IMG/VR virus record: IMGVR_UViG_3300034062_006701
Direction: 5' to 3' (one strand)
From: a virus
Lineage: Duplodnaviria > Caudoviricetes
DNA: 64,000 nt
The position numbers were made by a program, and so were the translations under genes. Of the stretch, positions 3 through 33,800 are shown piece after piece. Below the pieces are notes generated by a model. The model had not been told where the DNA came from and did not search any database. It worked only from the letters and a program-made list of their open reading frames with translations. Position 1 is the stretch's first letter, and every line of letters begins with the position of its first letter.

Positions 3-3000
3 AGAAAGCTTATTACCCTCGATCAAGGTGAAATCGGATACACTATAGACTCAAAGCGTCTGTTTGTTGGTGATGGCATCATGCCTGGTGGTATTAGTGC
101 AGGTGTTAAGTTTTATAATGCTACAGACATTACCACAGATACAACTCTTGCAACAGCAATAACAGGCGACGTTGTATATGATCAGAGTCAAACCCTATAT
201 TATATCCTAACAGGTGGTAGTTATAATGTTAGAGCTTCGTATAAACCATTAGCGCAAATAACACTAACACAGACTACAAATACACTAAATTTCTCTGGTG
301 CACCCTATGTGGAATCCGGTGTAACTGGTGGTATACGGCCTATAAGTGGTTCCAATACTGCTTCCGGTACTTATTCTAATGTAGTTGGCGGTTGTTGCAA
401 TATAGCTTCTGGTAATTATTCATTTATAGGTGGTGGCTCCCTCAATACTGCTTGTGGAACTAATTCTAATGTAGCCGGTGGTGTTTGTAATATTGTTTTT
501 TGCGGCTCTTCCAATGTAGCAGGTGGTAGCCGTAATATAGCTTGTGGAAATACCTCGACTGTAGCAGGTGGTTGTTGTAATACTACTGTTGATTGTTTTA
601 CTAATGTAGCTGGTGGTCTTTGTAATAACGCTTGTAGTGCTGGTTCTAATGTTGCTGGTGGATTTGTAAATAGAGCTTCTGGACGTACTTCCAATGTAGC
701 TGGTGGTTGTAATAATACTGCTTCTGGATATTTCTCTAATGTAGCTGGTGGACGTTTTAATGTAGCTTGTGGATGTGCGTCTAATGTAGCTGGTGGTGCT
801 TATAATACAGCTTCCGGTACATATTCATTTATCGCAGGCAGTTCCGCCAATGACACCAAGGGGTTTGCTAATACCTTTATTCTCGGTACAGGGTTAAGTG
901 CTTCACAGGCAAACACTACATACGTTAATAATATTAGTTCAAGAGGGTTTATATATGGCGACGGTTCTCAACTAACCGGTATTACCGTAGCTGGTGTTGA
1001 TACCGGTGTAAGAGCATTAACCGGTAACTGGCAAAGTACCTACGGTACAGTATCAGCTTTAAGTGCTTCATGGGGTACCGGTGGGGGTAGTGGTATTGAT
1101 ACTGGTGTAAGAGCGTTAACCGGTAACTGGCAAAGTACCTACGGTACAGTATCAGCTTTAAGTGCTTTATGGAGTACAGGTGGATATACGACAGATTCCG
1201 GTGTAAGAGCATTAACTGGTAACTGGCAAAGTACCTACGGTACAGTATCAGCTTTAAGTGCTTCATGGGGCACAGCTTATTCATCATGGAACAGTGCCTC
1301 AGGGACATCTGTTCTAGAATTCAATGACACAAGATTTTCAAAATTATCAAGTCAGGCGTATTGTATAAATTCTGCCGGCTTAAAATCAATTCAGCCTATT
1401 AATGGGTTTAATACAGCTTCTAACTCATACTCTAATATTGCTGGAGGTGAATGCAACATTGCCTCTGCAAACTGGTCTAGTGTAGGCGGTGGTGAGTGTA
1501 ATAGAGCCACCGCAGATTATTCTACTATCGTCGGCGGCTTTAGTTCACAAGCTACGGGTAATAATTCTAGTATAGGCGGTGGTACCCTCAATATAGCAAG
1601 TGGAAATTGTTCTAATGTAGCTGGTGGTTGCAAGAATACAGCTTCTGGATGTTATTCTAACGTAGCTGGCGGTAAAGCAAATAGAGCCTCTGGACCGAGA
1701 TCAAATGTAGCAGGTGGTGAAAGCAACACAGCTTCCGGTTATTGGTCTAACGTAGCAGGCGGTGACGCTAATACAGCCTGTGGTAGTCGCTCTAATATAG
1801 CAGGTGGAAGCAGTAATACTGCTTCTTGCGGCTTTTCCAATGTAGCTGGTGGTAGTGGTAATATAGCGTGTGGAGCTAACTCTAATATAGCTGGTGGTTG
1901 TAATAATACAGCCTCTGGTTGTAATTCTAGTGTAGGTGGCGGTGAGTGTAATAGAGCTTCTGGAGTCAATTCAACTATCACCGGCGGTTTTAGTTCACGT
2001 GCTACTGGATGTGCTTCCAATGTAGCTGGTGGTAATAGTAATACAGCTTCTGGAAATTATTCTACTGTATCTGGTGGATATAATAATACAGCTTCAGGAT
2101 ATCATGCTAATGTAGCTGGTGGTAATAGTAATACAGCTTCTTCATCTTACTCTAATGTAGCTGGTGGATGTTGTAATCGAATACTCGGTGCTAGTAATTG
2201 TAATAGTAGTATTACCGGGGGTACTCTTAATGTAATTTGTGAAAGCACTTCTTCAGGGTATTACACAACCGGTGGTCACTATATCGGCAGTGGTTCTACT
2301 AATACTATATCATCTGTGTACGGTGATAACCGGAATAATGTACTAGTAGGCGGTGAATGTAATACAAATTCTGCTGCCTATAATGCTTTTATCGGCAGCG
2401 GTATACGCAACTGTATTGATGTGTCAGGGATCGAGTCTGCAATAGTCGGCGGTAGCTGTAATTTTATATGTCAGGGCTCTGGCTTTATAGGTGGTGGTGC
2501 TGTTAACTGTGTCACCGGCATCGGTGCATCTGTTGTAGGGGGTGCTTGTAATAGAGTTTCAGGTTCCTTTGGTAGTATTGTTGGCGGGTGTCGTAATGCA
2601 GCTTGCGGCAACTTTACATCTGTTGGCGGAGGATGTCATAACATTGTTGGACTCGGTGGAGCCGAAAGTGCTTCTACTATTGTAGGGGGTATCAGCGGGT
2701 GTATTACTCGTGGTCTAGCCTTTATCGGGGGCGGGTGTTTAAATAGAGCCAGTGGATGTGCATCATCTGTCGTAGGTGGTTGTTGTAATATCGTTCTTTG
2801 TGCGAATTCAACTATCGTGGGTGGAATTAGTAGTTGTAATAATGGCACTAATTCATTTATTGGAGGTGGTAGGTGTAATAGTATTGCTACTGGTGGAGGA
2901 CCTTCCGGTGGTTTTATACTTGGTGGAACTCTTAATAGAGTCACAGGCCTCGGTGGGTTTATCGGTGCAGGTTGTACTAATTGTGTTAGCGGTACTAATA

Positions 3001-3974
3001 GTGTAGTAGCAGGCGGTGAGTGTAATACATCTAGCGGTACCACTAGCTTTATCGGCAGTGGTGGGTGTAATAGAGCATCGTTTTTTTATTCCACTGTGGT
3101 TAACGGATTTTCAAATACAACTTGTTGTCAATATTCTACTGTAATCAATGGATTAAGTTCACAAGCTATAAATGATTATGCAATTATCGGTACCGGTACA
3201 TGTAATAATGCTTCCGGTAGATATTCAACTGTTATCAATGGATTCAGTTCTTGTGCTACTGGATACGCCACTTTCGTAGGAGCAGGTTCTGGAAATTGTG
3301 CTACCGCAGCTTATGATGTGGTTATTGGTGGAGCTCTCAATACAGCATGTGGATCTTTTTCTAATGTAGCTGGTGGGTGTCGTAATACAGCTAACGGATA
3401 TTCTAATGTAGCTGGTGGGTATTGTAATACTGCTTCTGGAAATTCTAATGTAGCTGGAGGTAGTAGTAATATAGCTTGCGGCTTAAATTCTACTATATCT
3501 GGTGGATATAAAAATACAGCTTCTGTATATTTTTCAAATGTAGCTGGTGGGTTTTGTAATACTGCTTCTGGAAATTATTCTACTGTATCTGGTGGATATA
3601 ATAATACAGCTTCAGGATATCATGCTAATGTAGCTGGTGGTCTTTGTAATAACGCTTGTGGAGTTAGTTCGAATGTAGCTGGTGGTAGAAATAATACTGC
3701 TTCTGGTACTTATTCTTTCGTAGCTGGTGGCTCTGCTAATAACACAAGTGGTTTTGCTAATACCTTTATTCTCGGTACAGGTTTAAGTGCTTCACAGGTC
3801 AGCTATACATATGTTAATAATATTAGCTCAAGAAACGTGGTATCCGCAAATATATTACGTATAGGTAATGCTGTTACATCTGCATCGGTTACAACAGTCG
3901 CACGTACAATAGAAGTGTTTGATCGTGACGGCGGATCGCTAGGGTTTATTCCTATATATAGTACAAGAGCATAA
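3..3974 (+). CDS. Tail fibre/adhesin-like Gly-Asn-Ser-Cys repeat protein (5'-partial; frame open from window start)
   Basis: Frame is open upstream of the ATG at 81 (RKLITLDQGEIGYTIDSKRLFVGDG, an N-terminal fibre-type motif). Dozens of ~14-aa SNVAGGxxNxASGxY repeats. Confidence 0.75.
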   Translation, partial: RKLITLDQGEIGYTIDSKRLFVGDGIMPGGISAGVKFYNATDITTDTTLATAITGDVVYDQSQTLYYILTGGSYNVRASYKPLAQITLTQTTNTLNFSGAPYVESGVTGGIRPISGSNTASGTYSNVVGGCCNIASGNYSFIGGGSLNTACGTNSNVAGGVCNIVFCGSSNVAGGSRNIACGNTSTVAGGCCNTTVDCFTNVAGGLCNNACSAGSNVAGGFVNRASGRTSNVAGGCNNTASGYFSNVAGGRFNVACGCASNVAGGAYNTASGTYSFIAGSSANDTKGFANTFILGTGLSASQANTTYVNNISSRGFIYGDGSQLTGITVAGVDTGVRALTGNWQSTYGTVSALSASWGTGGGSGIDTGVRALTGNWQSTYGTVSALSALWSTGGYTTDSGVRALTGNWQSTYGTVSALSASWGTAYSSWNSASGTSVLEFNDTRFSKLSSQAYCINSAGLKSIQPINGFNTASNSYSNIAGGECNIASANWSSVGGGECNRATADYSTIVGGFSSQATGNNSSIGGGTLNIASGNCSNVAGGCKNTASGCYSNVAGGKANRASGPRSNVAGGESNTASGYWSNVAGGDANTACGSRSNIAGGSSNTASCGFSNVAGGSGNIACGANSNIAGGCNNTASGCNSSVGGGECNRASGVNSTITGGFSSRATGCASNVAGGNSNTASGNYSTVSGGYNNTASGYHANVAGGNSNTASSSYSNVAGGCCNRILGASNCNSSITGGTLNVICESTSSGYYTTGGHYIGSGSTNTISSVYGDNRNNVLVGGECNTNSAAYNAFIGSGIRNCIDVSGIESAIVGGSCNFICQGSGFIGGGAVNCVTGIGASVVGGACNRVSGSFGSIVGGCRNAACGNFTSVGGGCHNIVGLGGAESASTIVGGISGCITRGLAFIGGGCLNRASGCASSVVGGCCNIVLCANSTIVGGISSCNNGTNSFIGGGRCNSIATGGGPSGGFILGGTLNRVTGLGGFIGAGCTNCVSGTNSVVAGGECNTSSGTTSFIGSGGCNRASFFYSTVVNGFSNTTCCQYSTVINGLSSQAINDYAIIGTGTCNNASGRYSTVINGFSSCATGYATFVGAGSGNCATAAYDVVIGGALNTACGSFSNVAGGCRNTANGYSNVAGGYCNTASGNSNVAGGSSNIACGLNSTISGGYKNTASVYFSNVAGGFCNTASGNYSTVSGGYNNTASGYHANVAGGLCNNACGVSSNVAGGRNNTASGTYSFVAGGSANNTSGFANTFILGTGLSASQVSYTYVNNISSRNVVSANILRIGNAVTSASVTTVARTIEVFDRDGGSLGFIPIYSTRA
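993..1272 (+). repeat. Three near-identical in-frame tandem repeats (GVRALTGNWQSTYGTVSALSA)
   Basis: ggtgtaagagc(a/g)ttaac(c/t)ggtaactggcaaagtacctacggtacagtatcagctttaagtgct occurs three times. Confidence 0.95.
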
Positions 3975-4023
3975 TAATAATAATACCTGTTGTTTTCTAT
4001 ATTTTTAATATTAAAATATAGAT

Positions 4024-4965
4024 ATGTCAGACAAATATATTGTATTTCACATAGATGGTGGAGCTGGTAAAAACGTTATTGCAACAGCAGTATGCCGTTC
4101 AATTAAAGCAGCTTACCCTGAACACAATCTTGTAGTTGTAACAGCTTACCCAGAGGTGTTTCTTCACAATCCTAACGTTTATAGGGTGTATAAGTTTGGT
4201 AATTTACCGTACTTTTATGATGATTATATTAAGAATAAAGAATCAAAGATCCTAAGACTTGAGCCTTATCATACGGAAGATTTTCTTTATCGTCGCAAGC
4301 ATCTAAGTGAAATTTGGTGTGATCTTTTTAATGTACCGACAACAGGTGAAAAGCCTGAGATTTATCTCACCCAGCGTGAACTGATGTTTATTAGTCGTCA
4401 GTATCAAGACACTCGCCCTGTTCTATTGATTCAACCCTCTGGTGGTGCAGACACCCAGCCTCATCCCTATAGCTGGGCTCGTGACCTTCCACCGTCAATA
4501 GCACAAGATGTAGTAAATGGTGTGAAGGATAAATTTAAATCTATTGTACATGTAAGACGTGAAAATCAAACACCTCTTGAAAATACAATAGCGCTAACAG
4601 ATAATCTAAGACACCTCTTCTGTCACGTTGCTCTTGCTGATAAGATTCTCGGTGTAGATTCTCTAATCCAGCACGTTGCAGCAGCTCTCAATAAACCAGC
4701 AACTGTATGTTGGATTACAAATTCACCAAAGGTTTTTGGGTACAGTATTCATAACAATATCCTAGCAAAAGGACATAAGAGCTTTAGTCATCAGATTGAT
4801 CATTATCTTGATCAGGCAGATTGGGTAGGTAATAATTTCTACCAATGTAATTATACAGACTTAAACACTATTTTCGATAGACAGCAAATTATTGAATCTC
4901 TTCTTGGATCTAAGAAAGAGCTACTCTTTGATATTGATGTCAACAAACACTCTATAACCCTATGA
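4024..4965 (+). CDS. Glycosyltransferase, GT9/heptosyltransferase-like
   Basis: N-terminal GGAGKNVIATAVCRSIK and C-terminal ILGVDSLIQHVAAALNKPATVCW resemble the GT9 GT-B fold. Confidence 0.7.
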   Translation: MSDKYIVFHIDGGAGKNVIATAVCRSIKAAYPEHNLVVVTAYPEVFLHNPNVYRVYKFGNLPYFYDDYIKNKESKILRLEPYHTEDFLYRRKHLSEIWCDLFNVPTTGEKPEIYLTQRELMFISRQYQDTRPVLLIQPSGGADTQPHPYSWARDLPPSIAQDVVNGVKDKFKSIVHVRRENQTPLENTIALTDNLRHLFCHVALADKILGVDSLIQHVAAALNKPATVCWITNSPKVFGYSIHNNILAKGHKSFSHQIDHYLDQADWVGNNFYQCNYTDLNTIFDRQQIIESLLGSKKELLFDIDVNKHSITL

Positions 4966-5780
4966 TATTCTTTAATTCATCAATGCCAAGGTCCATGTCG
5001 ACCTTGCTACAATGTATACTCAATCAGAACCCACAAGTATGTGCTACTCCAACAGACGGTGTATTAGAGTACCTATATGGTGCACGTGCTAACTATACTT
5101 CAACACCAGAGGTTAAAGCCATAGATAAGGAACTAGCTTTAAAGACTTGGCGAGGGTTTTGTTGGGGAGGTCTCGAGGGTTATGCAAAGGCATATACCAA
5201 TAAGGATCATATTTGTATTAAAACAAGAGGTGCTACAATTCACCATGATTGGTTTAATTCATTTATGCCATATGATATGAAGTGCATTGTAATGGTGAGG
5301 AATCTTAAGAGTATTGTCTCCTCTATGGAGAAGCTCTATAGGTCAAATCAAGAAAACCATCAAGAGATACAAAACCACGCAGCGATGACCGGTACGAGTA
5401 CCGCTAAGAGAGTCGATTCATGGTTTGCAAGTCCACCGGTTGGATTGGCGTTAGAACGTCTACAGCAGTGCTTCCTTGAAGGTACAAACAAAAACTTTTT
5501 ATACGTACGAGCTGAAGATCTTACTAGCTACCCTGATCGGGAGATGAATAAGATTTATAATTATCTTGGTCTTGACCCGTTTAAGCATGACTTTGATAAT
5601 GTAGAGCAAACAATAAAAGAAGATGATTCTGTATACGGTCTATCATCTACATTACACACAATTAGAAAATCTGTAAAACCCCTGACACCGGACTATACAC
5701 AGGTACTAGGACCACAGATATGTGATTGGATTGATAATACATTCCAGAACTATCAAAGAATGTTTGGCTATATTAAATAA
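4962..5780 (+). CDS. Sulfotransferase family protein
   Basis: PAPS-binding-like loop SSMPRSMSTLLQCIL, VMVRN motif, YVRAEDL...P.REMNKIYNYLGL. Confidence 0.8.
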   Translation: MIFFNSSMPRSMSTLLQCILNQNPQVCATPTDGVLEYLYGARANYTSTPEVKAIDKELALKTWRGFCWGGLEGYAKAYTNKDHICIKTRGATIHHDWFNSFMPYDMKCIVMVRNLKSIVSSMEKLYRSNQENHQEIQNHAAMTGTSTAKRVDSWFASPPVGLALERLQQCFLEGTNKNFLYVRAEDLTSYPDREMNKIYNYLGLDPFKHDFDNVEQTIKEDDSVYGLSSTLHTIRKSVKPLTPDYTQVLGPQICDWIDNTFQNYQRMFGYIK

Positions 5781-5788
5781 TATAGCCA

Positions 5789-5962
5789 ATGACATTTAAA
5801 GAATACCTGAAGACACCAGAAGCAAAACGCAAAATTAAACAGATTATAAAGAAGAGACACGCTTTGCCTGTATGCACTAAATCACGTCATATGGATACAA
5901 GCAATATGGGATCAACTGCAGCATTACCTGCTGCATCACCTACACAGCCTTCTTTAAGTTGA
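5789..5962 (+). CDS. Small hypothetical protein (57 aa, MTFKEYLK...)
   Basis: Translated by hand; follows a TTAAATA box. Confidence 0.55.
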   Translation: MTFKEYLKTPEAKRKIKQIIKKRHALPVCTKSRHMDTSNMGSTAALPAASPTQPSLS

Positions 5963-18177: not shown

Positions 18178-18251
18178 TGGTAGGAGATGACGGTAACGCT
18201 CCGCCGAATCCTGAGTGTAAATCAGGTGTTTTACTTTTAAACTAATCTCCC
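18178..18251 (-). tRNA. trnV: tRNA-Val(UAC) with atypical D and T loops
   Basis: CCTGA-TTTACAC-TCAGG anticodon arm; CCA encoded; T-loop AGCGTTA. Confidence 0.85.
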
Positions 18252-21838: not shown

Positions 21839-22603
21839 TCATGTTAAAGTACCTATTGAGGCTTGAGACTGTCTCTCATTTAATATTCTTTTATAGATGG
21901 TTTTAAGCACCGGCGCCGTATTAAAATCTAACCAAAGCATCTTATACCCTTTATCGTCGCAGTATTTTTCTAACGCCAGTTGCTTATAAGGTATAGTTCT
22001 ATTATAAGGGTGCTCTGATTGTATATTCCACTTTTGCTTTACCTCGACAATGCACGTTTTACTATCTATCCTACAAATAAAATCAGGATTAAATGTTCGA
22101 TGTGACCCGTCTTCCCAATAATTTAAAATACTTATAAATCGCTCAATACGATTCGCACCTAATTCATCAATGAGATATACAATACCAGCTTTTTCTAAAT
22201 TTGAATCAACATCTATTACCACATCTTTATAATTAAATGTTTCTCTTAATGTAGAGAAATTACCGTGCTCTTTGAGATAATTTTGCCTATTAATAGAACG
22301 TAAATAGCTCGCACATACCTTACTACATGTCTTTTTTTCGTAACCAGCTTGTGCTATAAAAGTATCACCACACGTTACACAAACACAATCGATGTACGTC
22401 CTTGGCCTATATCCCGGTGATCCTGGAATATTTCGCTTTCTACCTTTGAGGGACCGAGAGATTTTTAATTTTGTTGCTTCTGAGCGCACTCCCCTGTTAT
22501 TAGCGCAATTGCGCGAACAATATAATAAAGGTTTTGTTTTACGAACAACCCTATCCTTACGCCAATCATCAACTATTTCTTCTTTACAAGTTATACATTT
22601 CAT
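21839..22603 (-). CDS. Free-standing homing-type endonuclease (Zn fingers + PD-(D/E)XK, TnsA-N-like)
   Basis: CxxC repeats; FNPDFIC...IVEVKQ catalytic motif. Confidence 0.75.
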   Translation of the reverse strand: MKCITCKEEIVDDWRKDRVVRKTKPLLYCSRNCANNRGVRSEATKLKISRSLKGRKRNIPGSPGYRPRTYIDCVCVTCGDTFIAQAGYEKKTCSKVCASYLRSINRQNYLKEHGNFSTLRETFNYKDVVIDVDSNLEKAGIVYLIDELGANRIERFISILNYWEDGSHRTFNPDFICRIDSKTCIVEVKQKWNIQSEHPYNRTIPYKQLALEKYCDDKGYKMLWLDFNTAPVLKTIYKRILNERQSQASIGTLT

Positions 22604-22652
22604 AAGATTTGAACCTATAATTATTTAGTCTCTAGGTTCGAGTCCTAAAGAG

Positions 22653-22907
22653 CTCCGGGGGCAGGATTTGAACCTGCGACCAATCGGTTACATCTACCCT
22701 TAAGTTTTAATTCCTTAAGGAATGGACTTTGTCTTCATCCTGTTAGGATGTGTCGTGTAAAGTCTCTACACTTGCCCGGTCTTTCGACCTGCTAGCTCGG
22801 CGTTAGCATTTCAGCTTTCACCGACTTAGCGACATTTTTCAATCAACATTACTGCTGAAAGCTGCAACTTAATACAGCCGACCGCTCTACCGCTGAGCTA
22901 CCCCGGA
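22653..22907 (-). tRNA. trnN: tRNA-Asn(GUU), split by an intron between anticodon positions 35 and 36
   Basis: 5' exon 22907-22874 (TCCGGGG...CGGCTGT) joined to 3' exon 22690-22653 (TAACCGAT...CCCCGGAG) gives a complete cloverleaf with G73. Confidence 0.92.
22691..22873 (-). mobile_element. Group I self-splicing intron, 183 nt, ORF-less
   Basis: P1 with U-G (exon GGCUGU / intron GCAGCU); P2 GUAA loop; AACGCCGAG; R GUGUAGAGACU; P8; S AAGACAAAGUCC; P9; terminal G. Confidence 0.92.
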
Positions 22908-22959: not shown

Positions 22960-23054
22960 TGGAAGTGGGTATGGGAATCGAACCCATGCTCGTCCCTCAT
23001 CTAGGGAACACAGATTATAAGTCTGTCGGTGCTATCCAGTTACACTAACCCACC
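22960..23054 (-). tRNA. trnI: tRNA with UAU (Ile) anticodon and a long variable arm
   Basis: ACAGA-CTTATAA-TCTGT; extra arm TTCCCT-AGATG-AGGGA; G1-U72, U73, CCA. Confidence 0.85.
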
Positions 23055-28609: not shown

Positions 28610-28696
28610 AAGAGGTGGAGGGATTCGAACCCCCGAGACCGGTTATGGTCTGGCGATTTAGTAAATCGCTCTCGTCGACCGCTTGAGTACACCTCC
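28610..28696 (-). tRNA. trnS: tRNA-Ser(ACU), A34 anticodon
   Basis: GCGAT-TTACTAA-ATCGC; long arm; GGAGGTG acceptor; no CCA. Confidence 0.88.
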
Positions 28697-33164: not shown

Positions 33165-33247
33165 TGGAGCCTGTGGAGGGACTCGAACCCCCGTTGTTTG
33201 TATACCACTTTACAAAAGTGGTGCTGTCGCCGCTGAGCCACACAGGC
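33165..33247 (-). tRNA. trnT: tRNA-Thr(UGU) with a 12-nt variable region
   Basis: CCACT-TTTGTAA-AGTGG; G1-C72, C2-G71, U73; CCA. Confidence 0.88.
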
Positions 33248-33351: not shown

Positions 33352-33800
33352 TGGTGGAGGCGTCGGAGATCTGCCCTCCGAGTCCTTATAATATTTCTCT
33401 TATATTTTCTACACGCTTATGTAAGTTTAGGATTTGATTGACTACAGGCTCCTATGGCTTACCAGCCTATCTTTTTAAGTCTGCCTATATAGATGAAGAG
33501 TTCTATACAACCCCTTGTACTGAGTTTTCTAGGAGTCACAAGTACCTCCATAACCTATTGGTTTAGCTCCCTAAGATCTTTAATAGGATCCAATCTTAGT
33601 TTTTAGGCAGCGAGGAGTGACTCTTCTTCGCAGCTGGCGAGGATATCGTCAGCGTTGTTGAAACAGTACTCAGCTTCTGCTAAGAGCGCATCGATGTTAT
33701 CTTCTGCGTTTAGTTTTTTAGAAGGCTTTTATAGTGGCCAACCTTCCAACCACTGCGTGCAATATAAAACCAGACTATAAGTCGATTCTATGTCGCCCCC
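33352..33800 (-). ncRNA. ssrA: tmRNA, 449 nt
   Basis: 5' GGGGGCGACATAGAATCGAC; 3' CGCCTCCACCA with G3-U70; internal tag ORF 33707-33603 ending LLAA. Confidence 0.95.

Follow-up and report, generated by a model that had tools for sequence, protein, structure and literature searches.

A compact group I intron in the anticodon loop of phage tRNA-Asn genes, and an adjacent nuclease-like gene

Group I introns of the IC3 type are already known from the anticodon loops of bacterial tRNA genes. In the preprint by Williams (2020; bioRxiv 10.1101/2020.01.27.920355), the number of bacterial tRNA intron types rises from four to 21; the four classical types, Leu.3Ug, Arg.5Ug, fMet.2Ug and Ile2.5Ug, are all IC3 and correspond to the Leu, Arg, fMet and Ile sites that the first-pass annotation of our locus had given as classical. 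The seed alignment in the same source includes “Pam37.Asn.4Ug”, from a bacterial assembly, and the Asn.4Ug site is thus already catalogued for bacteria. The annotation had also pointed to recently reported introns at tRNA-Asn 35/36 in Patescibacteria. The Pam37 entry confirms that the site has been reported, but the attribution to Patescibacteria was not confirmed, and our literature search on tRNA-Asn group I introns in that group and on a “smallest group I intron” record returned nothing usable. For phages, a review placed every group I intron then known in a protein-coding gene (Hausner et al. 2014, PMC3984707). Phages are not mentioned in the Williams preprint, and the literature searched yielded no group I intron described from a phage tRNA gene after the 2014 review.

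Here we describe such an intron in a 64-kb stretch of viral DNA, referred to below as the window. The window encodes ribonucleotide reductase subunits, ThyX, tail-fibre-like proteins and a virion structural protein (phrog_1645, E = 2e-139), and its DNA was found in about 20 freshwater or lake metagenome runs from 16 studies. This gene content and the freshwater occurrence point to an uncultured large tailed phage. Several of its RNA genes, all on the minus strand, have features of their own. The tRNA cluster contains a 449-nt tmRNA gene (33352-33800; Rfam, 85.7 bits). An 83-nt tRNA-Thr(UGU) gene lies at 33165-33247, a tRNA-Ser gene with the rare anticodon ACU at 28610-28696, and a tRNA gene scoring 52 bits with Rfam and missed by ARAGORN at 18181-18251. 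At 22960-23054 lies a 95-nt tRNA gene with the anticodon UAU (Ile), whose variable arm of some 19 nt is atypical of tRNA-Ile; three other viral contigs, L018 (96%), L198 and L279, contain nearly identical copies.

The split tRNA-Asn(GUU) gene occupies 22652-22907 on the minus strand, as do all features below unless stated otherwise. With introns allowed, ARAGORN reports it as tRNA-Asn c[22652,22907], gtt, i(35,183), that is, a 256-nt precursor of a 73-nt mature tRNA with discriminator G and no encoded CCA. The 5′ exon (22874-22907, tRNA positions 1-35) comprises the acceptor strand UCCGGGG, the D arm GCUC/GAGC, the 5′ strand of the anticodon stem GUCGG, and then CUGU; it ends in GGCUGU at 22874, and its last base, U35, is the U of the P1 U-G wobble. 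The 3′ exon (22652-22690, positions 36-73) begins UAACCGA and consists of UAA, CCGAU, a 5-nt variable loop, the T arm GCAGG-UUCAAAU-CCUGC, the 3′ acceptor strand CCCCGGA and the discriminator. Together, the exons retain a canonical cloverleaf. Between them lies a 183-nt group I intron without an ORF (22691-22873), which starts with A22873 and ends with the omega-G at 22691.

Joining U35 (22874) to U36 (22690) yields the 7-nt loop CUGUUAA with anticodon GUU. Only one U-1/omega-G boundary pair, A22873 to G22691, restores this loop, and ARAGORN calls the resulting spliced sequence a 73-nt tRNA-Asn. The coordinates given in the first-pass annotation for a 183-nt intron, 22691-22873, are therefore exact by both sequence reading and the intron-aware ARAGORN call, and its proposed splice at 35/36, restoring GUU, agrees with the spliced exons. 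The prediction that standard tRNA finders would miss the gene was likewise borne out: neither default ARAGORN nor the Rfam tRNA model reported it in a scan of the window. No second tRNA-Asn was found among the 16 tRNA genes and one tmRNA gene of the window, and a promoter and terminator scan around the tRNA-Asn gene gave nothing above chance.

We next consider the identity of the insert. The Rfam Intron_gpI model (RF00028) matches 22698-22883 along its full length (model positions 1-253) with 44.9 bits, corresponding to E = 4.3e-10 in an 801-nt stretch and 3.4e-8 in the whole 64-kb window, and this is the sole group I match in the window. The covariance-model check that the annotation had suggested thus gave a full-length match, with a score below the curated gathering score of 50. 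According to Williams (2020; bioRxiv 10.1101/2020.01.27.920355), none of the 12 Rfam seed sequences is bacterial, and a working threshold of 18-20 bits is used for tRNA introns. The precursor has a folding energy z-score of -6.2 relative to dinucleotide shuffles, and its minimum-energy fold shows P1, P2, P4/P5, the P6a hairpin, P8, P9 and the tRNA arms.

To place the intron among its relatives, we gathered similar loci by exact-pattern core-motif scans of IMG/VR viral contigs and JGI metagenome contigs. The subfamily signature GAUGAAGACAAAGUCCAUUCC occurs in 17 loci besides the window, on viral and freshwater metagenome contigs, and the introns are 178-190 nt long where their boundaries were mapped. 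For the boundaries, every combination of a 5′ exon end CUGU and an omega-G followed by UAA was tried, and the spliced product was passed to ARAGORN. In 15 signature records (14 loci and the window gene), this produced a valid tRNA-Asn(GUU) with U-1 and omega-G at 35/36. A further locus, L048, was read by eye as the same tRNA-Asn site; L059 contains the intron in a gene whose anticodon stem is poorly paired, and L016 is cut off by the end of its contig. The annotation had presented the intron as a very compact ribozyme at a rare site in a phage. The phage setting and the compactness are upheld, but the intron is no one-off, being one member of a family that comprises at least 17 loci.

The annotation had proposed looking for the same intron in cellular genomes; among bacteria and archaea, with 185,579 species represented by one genome each, GAUGAAGACAAAGUCCAUUCC had no match. 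In 50,697 deposited phage genomes, neither the tRNA-Asn intron nor a related tRNA-Leu intron, described below, had a match; Arthrobacter phages alone gave hits, and these covered the 3′ half of the tRNA. An intronless tRNA-Asn whose anticodon arm (UCGGCUGUUAACCGA) is that of the window gene occurs in at least 101 viral contigs, and none of them shares the window flanks at the nucleotide level.

Covariation was counted in an alignment of 14 distinct sequences (A2), on which the proposed P1-P9 were imposed with P7 as a pseudoknot. Overall, 96.5% of the 750 cells hold standard pairs, and compensatory changes on both sides were found in 18 of the 54 pairs (61 cells). The covariation score was 0.258 compared with 0.115 in shuffled alignments, none of 500 shuffles reaching the observed value, and in slid controls, with the 3′ partners moved by 1-3 columns, 33-38% of cells were paired and 2-4 pairs were doubly changed. 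RNAalifold, to which the proposed structure was not supplied, found P1, P2, P4, P5, P6a, P8 and P9, as well as the two innermost pairs of the exon anticodon stem, both of which covary. It gave invariant alternative helices where the P3/P7 pseudoknot, which it cannot draw, belongs.

The full-length RF00028 match, the fold and the covariation across relatives together indicate a conserved, selected group I fold. They also bear on the reading that the group I resemblance arose by chance inside an unrelated insert. A sub-threshold Rfam score is the one observation in its favor; it is refuted by the E-value of the match in the window, the folding energy and the covariation across the family, and we assign it a negligible probability.

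The individual helices were examined against the same 14 sequences. P1 (22879-22873 with 22866-22860) is formed by the exon end GGCUGU plus the first intron base A with the internal guide UGCAGCU, and includes the U35-G wobble; both this wobble and the omega-G are present in all 14 sequences, and P1 shows little covariation because its exon side is invariant. P2 (22843-22858) has 6 bp, five of them with double compensatory changes, and is capped by a GNRA tetraloop in 14 of 14 sequences (GUAA in the window, GAAA or GCAA in the relatives). In P3, the 5′ strand UGUCG (22830-22834) pairs with the 3′ strand CGACA (22751-22755), and two of the five pairs covary, between GC and UA and between UA and CG. 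P4 (22824-22819 with 22802-22797) is 100% paired over 6 bp and invariant. It encloses P5 (22815-22806), which has 2 bp and a UGAAAU loop, and in which one pair varies among GC, GU and AU, with double changes in one of the two pairs. The GAAA-capped hairpin of P6/P6a (22770-22796) covaries in four of eight pairs.

In P7, the 5′ strand GACUUU (22759-22764), inside the R element GUAGAGACU, pairs with the 3′ strand AAAGUC (22725-22730), inside the S element GAAGACAAAGUCC (J8/7 plus P7′). This helix is identical to that of the Azoarcus-type core and, being invariant in all 14 sequences, is uninformative for covariation. P8 (22737-22749) consists of 5 bp and a triloop, with invariant CC:GG pairs and a double change in one of the five pairs. 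P9 (22698-22720) has 7 bp, four of which covary, and an A-rich 9-nt loop. Double changes in P2, P3, P5, P6/P6a, P8 and P9 thus back the P3-P9 core with its P3/P7 pseudoknot, and either covariation or pairing conserved among relatives speaks for every helix except the invariant P7 and the weak P10. P10 itself, for which the L1 loop holds the proposed GUU, is in the window a 3-bp GUU/AAC pairing that skips U36; in most relatives only 2 bp form (with U36 and A37), directly beside P1, and the register differs between relatives. P1-P9 and the omega-G are accordingly present as first annotated, but the 3-bp P10 is not conserved.

This pattern also speaks to the possibility that the intron is a decaying, non-splicing remnant and the tRNA-Asn gene a pseudogene. 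Such a decay would fit the RF00028 score under the gathering threshold, the absence of a homing endonuclease inside the intron, and the poorly paired anticodon stem of L059. However, compensatory substitutions preserve the helices across 14 diverged sequences, no variation is seen at U-1, at the omega-G or in the core elements, and the exon anticodon stem covaries too; purifying selection on such a scale does not fit a dead element. We thus regard decay as highly improbable. The sequence and fold instead argue, with high probability, for a functional group I intron that lacks an ORF, has a core of the IC3/Azoarcus type and separates U35 from U36 in a phage tRNA-Asn(GUU).

We then compared the intron with bacterial tRNA introns, of which at least 120 loci were fetched with the Azoarcus-type core motif. 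ARAGORN placed 111 of the fetched introns in tRNAs, mostly Leu(UAA) but also Met/Ile2(CAU), Arg and others, with lengths of 190-761 nt (median 234). Judged by its R and S elements, P4, J4/5 and anticodon-loop location, the window intron appears to have a core of the Azoarcus/IC3 kind. Like Azoarcus-type introns, it is ORF-less and compact and lies in the anticodon loop. With the Azoarcus-type introns of tRNA-Ile2, it has in common R (GUAGAGACU), S (GAAG.CA.AGUCC), the J4/5 AAA, P4 (UCGGNG/CGCCGA), the P6/P6a layout with a capped hairpin, and a GNRA L2. Aligned globally with a 204-nt Azoarcus-type tRNA-Ile2 intron (L124), it has identical bases at 115 of its 183 positions.

The two differ in host (a phage rather than a bacterium) and in insertion site, which is 35/36 of tRNA-Asn in the window and 36/37 of tRNA-Ile2 in Azoarcus. 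The Azoarcus intron measures 205 nt (PMC13168695), so that the window intron, at 183 nt, is 22 nt shorter, in line with the compactness first claimed for it. The shortening lies in trimmed peripheral helices. P2 has 6 bp compared with 9-10 in Azoarcus-type introns; P5 has 2 bp and a hexaloop, and no P5a receptor, where Azoarcus-type introns have a P5/P5a stem with a GNRA cap; P8 has 13 nt (5 bp and a triloop, without an 11-nt receptor) compared with 23 nt; and L9 is an A-rich 9-nt loop in place of the Azoarcus GAAA. The differences from Azoarcus-type introns in P2, P5 and P8 are all reductions, and the intron may be viewed as a bacterial tRNA intron trimmed to a 6-bp P2, a 2-bp P5 and a 5-bp P8, with neither P5a nor 11-nt receptors. 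The close similarity to Azoarcus stated in the first-pass annotation thus holds for the catalytic core, but not for P2, P5/P5a and P8, which are much reduced.

These reductions matter for autonomous folding. The Azoarcus structure has two tetraloop-receptor clamps, L2-P8 and L9-P5. Both clamp receptors are missing from the window intron, in which no 11-nt tetraloop receptor is visible, and autonomous folding at physiological Mg2+ is therefore not guaranteed. Hence, the intron could be a genuine group I intron that needs a phage or host protein (a chaperone or a maturase-like factor) or high Mg2+. In addition to the missing receptor, the short P2, P5 and P8 would be consistent with such a need, as would the length of the relatives, which at 173-190 nt (counting those in tRNA-Leu) form a shorter family than the 111 sampled bacterial IC3 introns (190-761 nt). 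Against it stand a core that is otherwise complete and the tRNA body itself, which would hold the exons together. CC:GG pairs in P8 are, moreover, a known docking site for GNRA loops, and the conserved GNRA L2 and the invariant CC:GG pairs of P8 may be docking partners here. We consider dependence on a helper improbable, though not negligibly so, and from the sequence we infer both splicing and splicing without protein help.

For an intron that splices on its own, the standard group I course would be expected. The pre-tRNA would be transcribed with the phage tRNA cluster, and P1 would arise by pairing of the internal guide with the 5′ half of the anticodon stem and loop, its U35-G wobble marking the 5′ splice site. 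The attack after U35 would come from an exogenous guanosine bound in P7. The omega-G (22691) would then take the G site, the free 3′-OH of U35 would attack after the omega-G, and the ligation of CUGU to UAA would release the mature tRNA-Asn.

We also examined RNA data for traces of this process. No RNA run was found among the runs that match the 801-nt stretch, and four metatranscriptome runs share a small part of the 256-nt gene. Two metatranscriptome contigs, X24 and X25, join 22690 to 22874 exactly. We rejected them as spliced products of the window phage, as they depart from the window at the ends of the acceptor stem and in the flanks (up to 255 nt); these differences point to other, intronless tRNA-Asn genes or their transcripts. 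A third contig, X22, is a relative of about 92% identity that spans both junctions unspliced, and could be precursor RNA or carried-over DNA. The three contigs thus count neither for nor against splicing.

By its insertion site, the window intron belongs to the Asn.4Ug class. In Williams (2020), Pam37.Asn.4Ug has the same isotype, a splice after the fourth nucleotide of the anticodon loop, U-1 and omega-G, and a P1 that starts with UGU followed by the intron base A. It differs in its core spelling (GCAGAGACUA and AUGAGAUAGUCC), in extra P2.1-like helices and in its greater length, and the window intron represents a different lineage at the same site. What is new, then, is the phage tRNA gene as a host class, which the literature searched does not cover, and a conserved phage family that is so far unpublished.

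The same core extends beyond tRNA-Asn. In viral contigs, we found it in tRNA-Leu, tRNA-Lys, tRNA-Thr and other isotypes. Two introns of the same phage clade, in tRNA-Leu(UAA), are 173 nt (L036) and 176 nt (L018) long; both have the core AAGUGUAGAGACUUUACAC of the window, and L018 also has GGAUGAAGACAAAGUCC, but they are inserted at 34/35 and use a different internal guide from that of the tRNA-Asn intron. L018 (IMGVR_UViG_3300032323_002049) contains, at about 2700-5800, two intron-split tRNA genes called by ARAGORN with introns: the tRNA-Leu(UAA) gene with its 176-nt intron, and a second gene with a 182-nt intron, a candidate by ARAGORN alone. In six further phage loci (L023, L024, L030, L032, L033 and L035), the core AAGUGUAGAGACUUUACAC ... 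GAUGAAGACAAAGUCC occurs in introns with an HNH-type ORF, in which CPNCH is visible; these introns appear to lie in protein-coding genes. The occurrence of one core in protein-gene introns and in several tRNA isotypes of phages suggests that a single intron clade has moved across very different genes. Bacterial tRNA genes with same-core introns of 195-324 nt were also observed in MAGs of Omnitrophota, Planctomycetia and Poriferihabitaceae (L038-L047); according to ARAGORN, with unrefined splice sites, the isotypes are Ser(GCU), Glu(UUC), Arg(UCU) and Thr(UGU).

A free-standing gene next to the tRNA-Asn gene may bear on how the intron spreads. An ORF of 254 aa (21839-22603), outside the intron, begins 49 nt downstream of the tRNA-Asn gene. 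It has an N-terminal Zn-ribbon/NUMOD3-like region and a putative C-terminal PD-(D/E)XK-like nuclease domain. Pfam and PHROG gave only faint matches, to NUMOD3, to an AHJR-like domain and to phrog_1271 “HNH endonuclease”, the last with E = 2e-5 over the N-terminal DNA-binding part. We found 49 metagenomic homologues, giving a family of about 50 uncharacterised proteins whose N-termini are Zn-ribbon/NUMOD3-like, and in an alignment of 30 homologues, E137, P173-D174 and E187-x-K189, the signature of PD-(D/E)XK, are invariant. The AlphaFold (AF2) model has a pLDDT of 90.5, and its top Foldseek matches in the PDB are nearly all PD-(D/E)XK nucleases (Bax1, Cas4/SSO0001, TnsA, XisH, MGME1, RecU and the R2 endonuclease among the matches), at weak scores (E at least 4e-3, TM at most 0.34).

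In every one of the nine loci examined, a tRNA-Asn(GUU) gene adjoins the homologue of this ORF, whose orientation varies (downstream, upstream or convergent). The adjacent tRNA-Asn carries the intron in six of these loci (the window, L055, L053, L015, L049 and L180) and lacks it in three (L181/182, L183/184 and L185), whose tRNA genes are unusual in their long variable arms or their D arms. The intronless tRNA-Asn(GUU) genes of L183 and L185 are 83-89 nt long and have a class-II-like long variable arm, and in L181 the D stem has 3 bp. L014 equals L055 in intron and exon sequence, and only L055 contains the ORF. Two T-arm-like fragments were also observed at 22604-22651, between the 3′ end of the window tRNA-Asn and the start of the ORF: AGGUUCAAAUC repeats the T arm of tRNA-Asn directly before the AUG of the ORF, and CUAGGUUCGAGUCCUAAAG is an inverted T-arm-like sequence on the plus strand. 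Both fragments may be left over from tRNA genes that the inserting nuclease gene disrupted.

By its sequence and its constant neighbor, the 254-aa ORF is likely a free-standing homing-type nuclease candidate tied to tRNA-Asn genes. Comparable arrangements are the cyanophage psbA intron with F-CphI and T4 SegB in a tRNA cluster (PMC2330249), which serve as comparison systems for collaborative homing. As with the psbA intron and F-CphI, an ORF-less intron lies here beside a free-standing nuclease-like gene, always at the same type of target gene. In contrast to the GIY-YIG or HNH enzymes of the psbA/F-CphI and SegB systems, the nuclease here is PD-(D/E)XK-like, and unlike in the psbA/F-CphI comparison, three of its homologues adjoin intronless tRNA-Asn genes. 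By this analogy, the nuclease might cut intronless tRNA-Asn DNA and thereby mobilize the ORF-less intron, a proposal that we hold to be less likely than not.

Our analysis indicates that phage tRNA genes, too, are invaded by group I introns, as seen at this locus and its relatives. Since default annotation misses intron-split tRNA genes, phage tRNA repertoires are under-counted; here, the gene concerned is the sole tRNA-Asn found in the window. With its peripheral clamps lost and a length of 183 nt (173-179 nt in relatives), the intron lends itself as a minimal natural scaffold to studies of folding and structure. A bolder and rather doubtful reading would make the 173-190 nt family the smallest natural clade of self-splicing group I introns, devoid of tetraloop-receptor clamps, and the Asn intron and the PD-(D/E)XK gene a collaborative-homing pair. 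If so, the nuclease would act on co-infecting phages, cutting those tRNA-Asn alleles that lack the intron, and its own genome would be shielded by the intron or by diverged exon sequence. That the nuclease-like gene is constantly found with tRNA-Asn suggests homing directed to the anticodon region of a tRNA.
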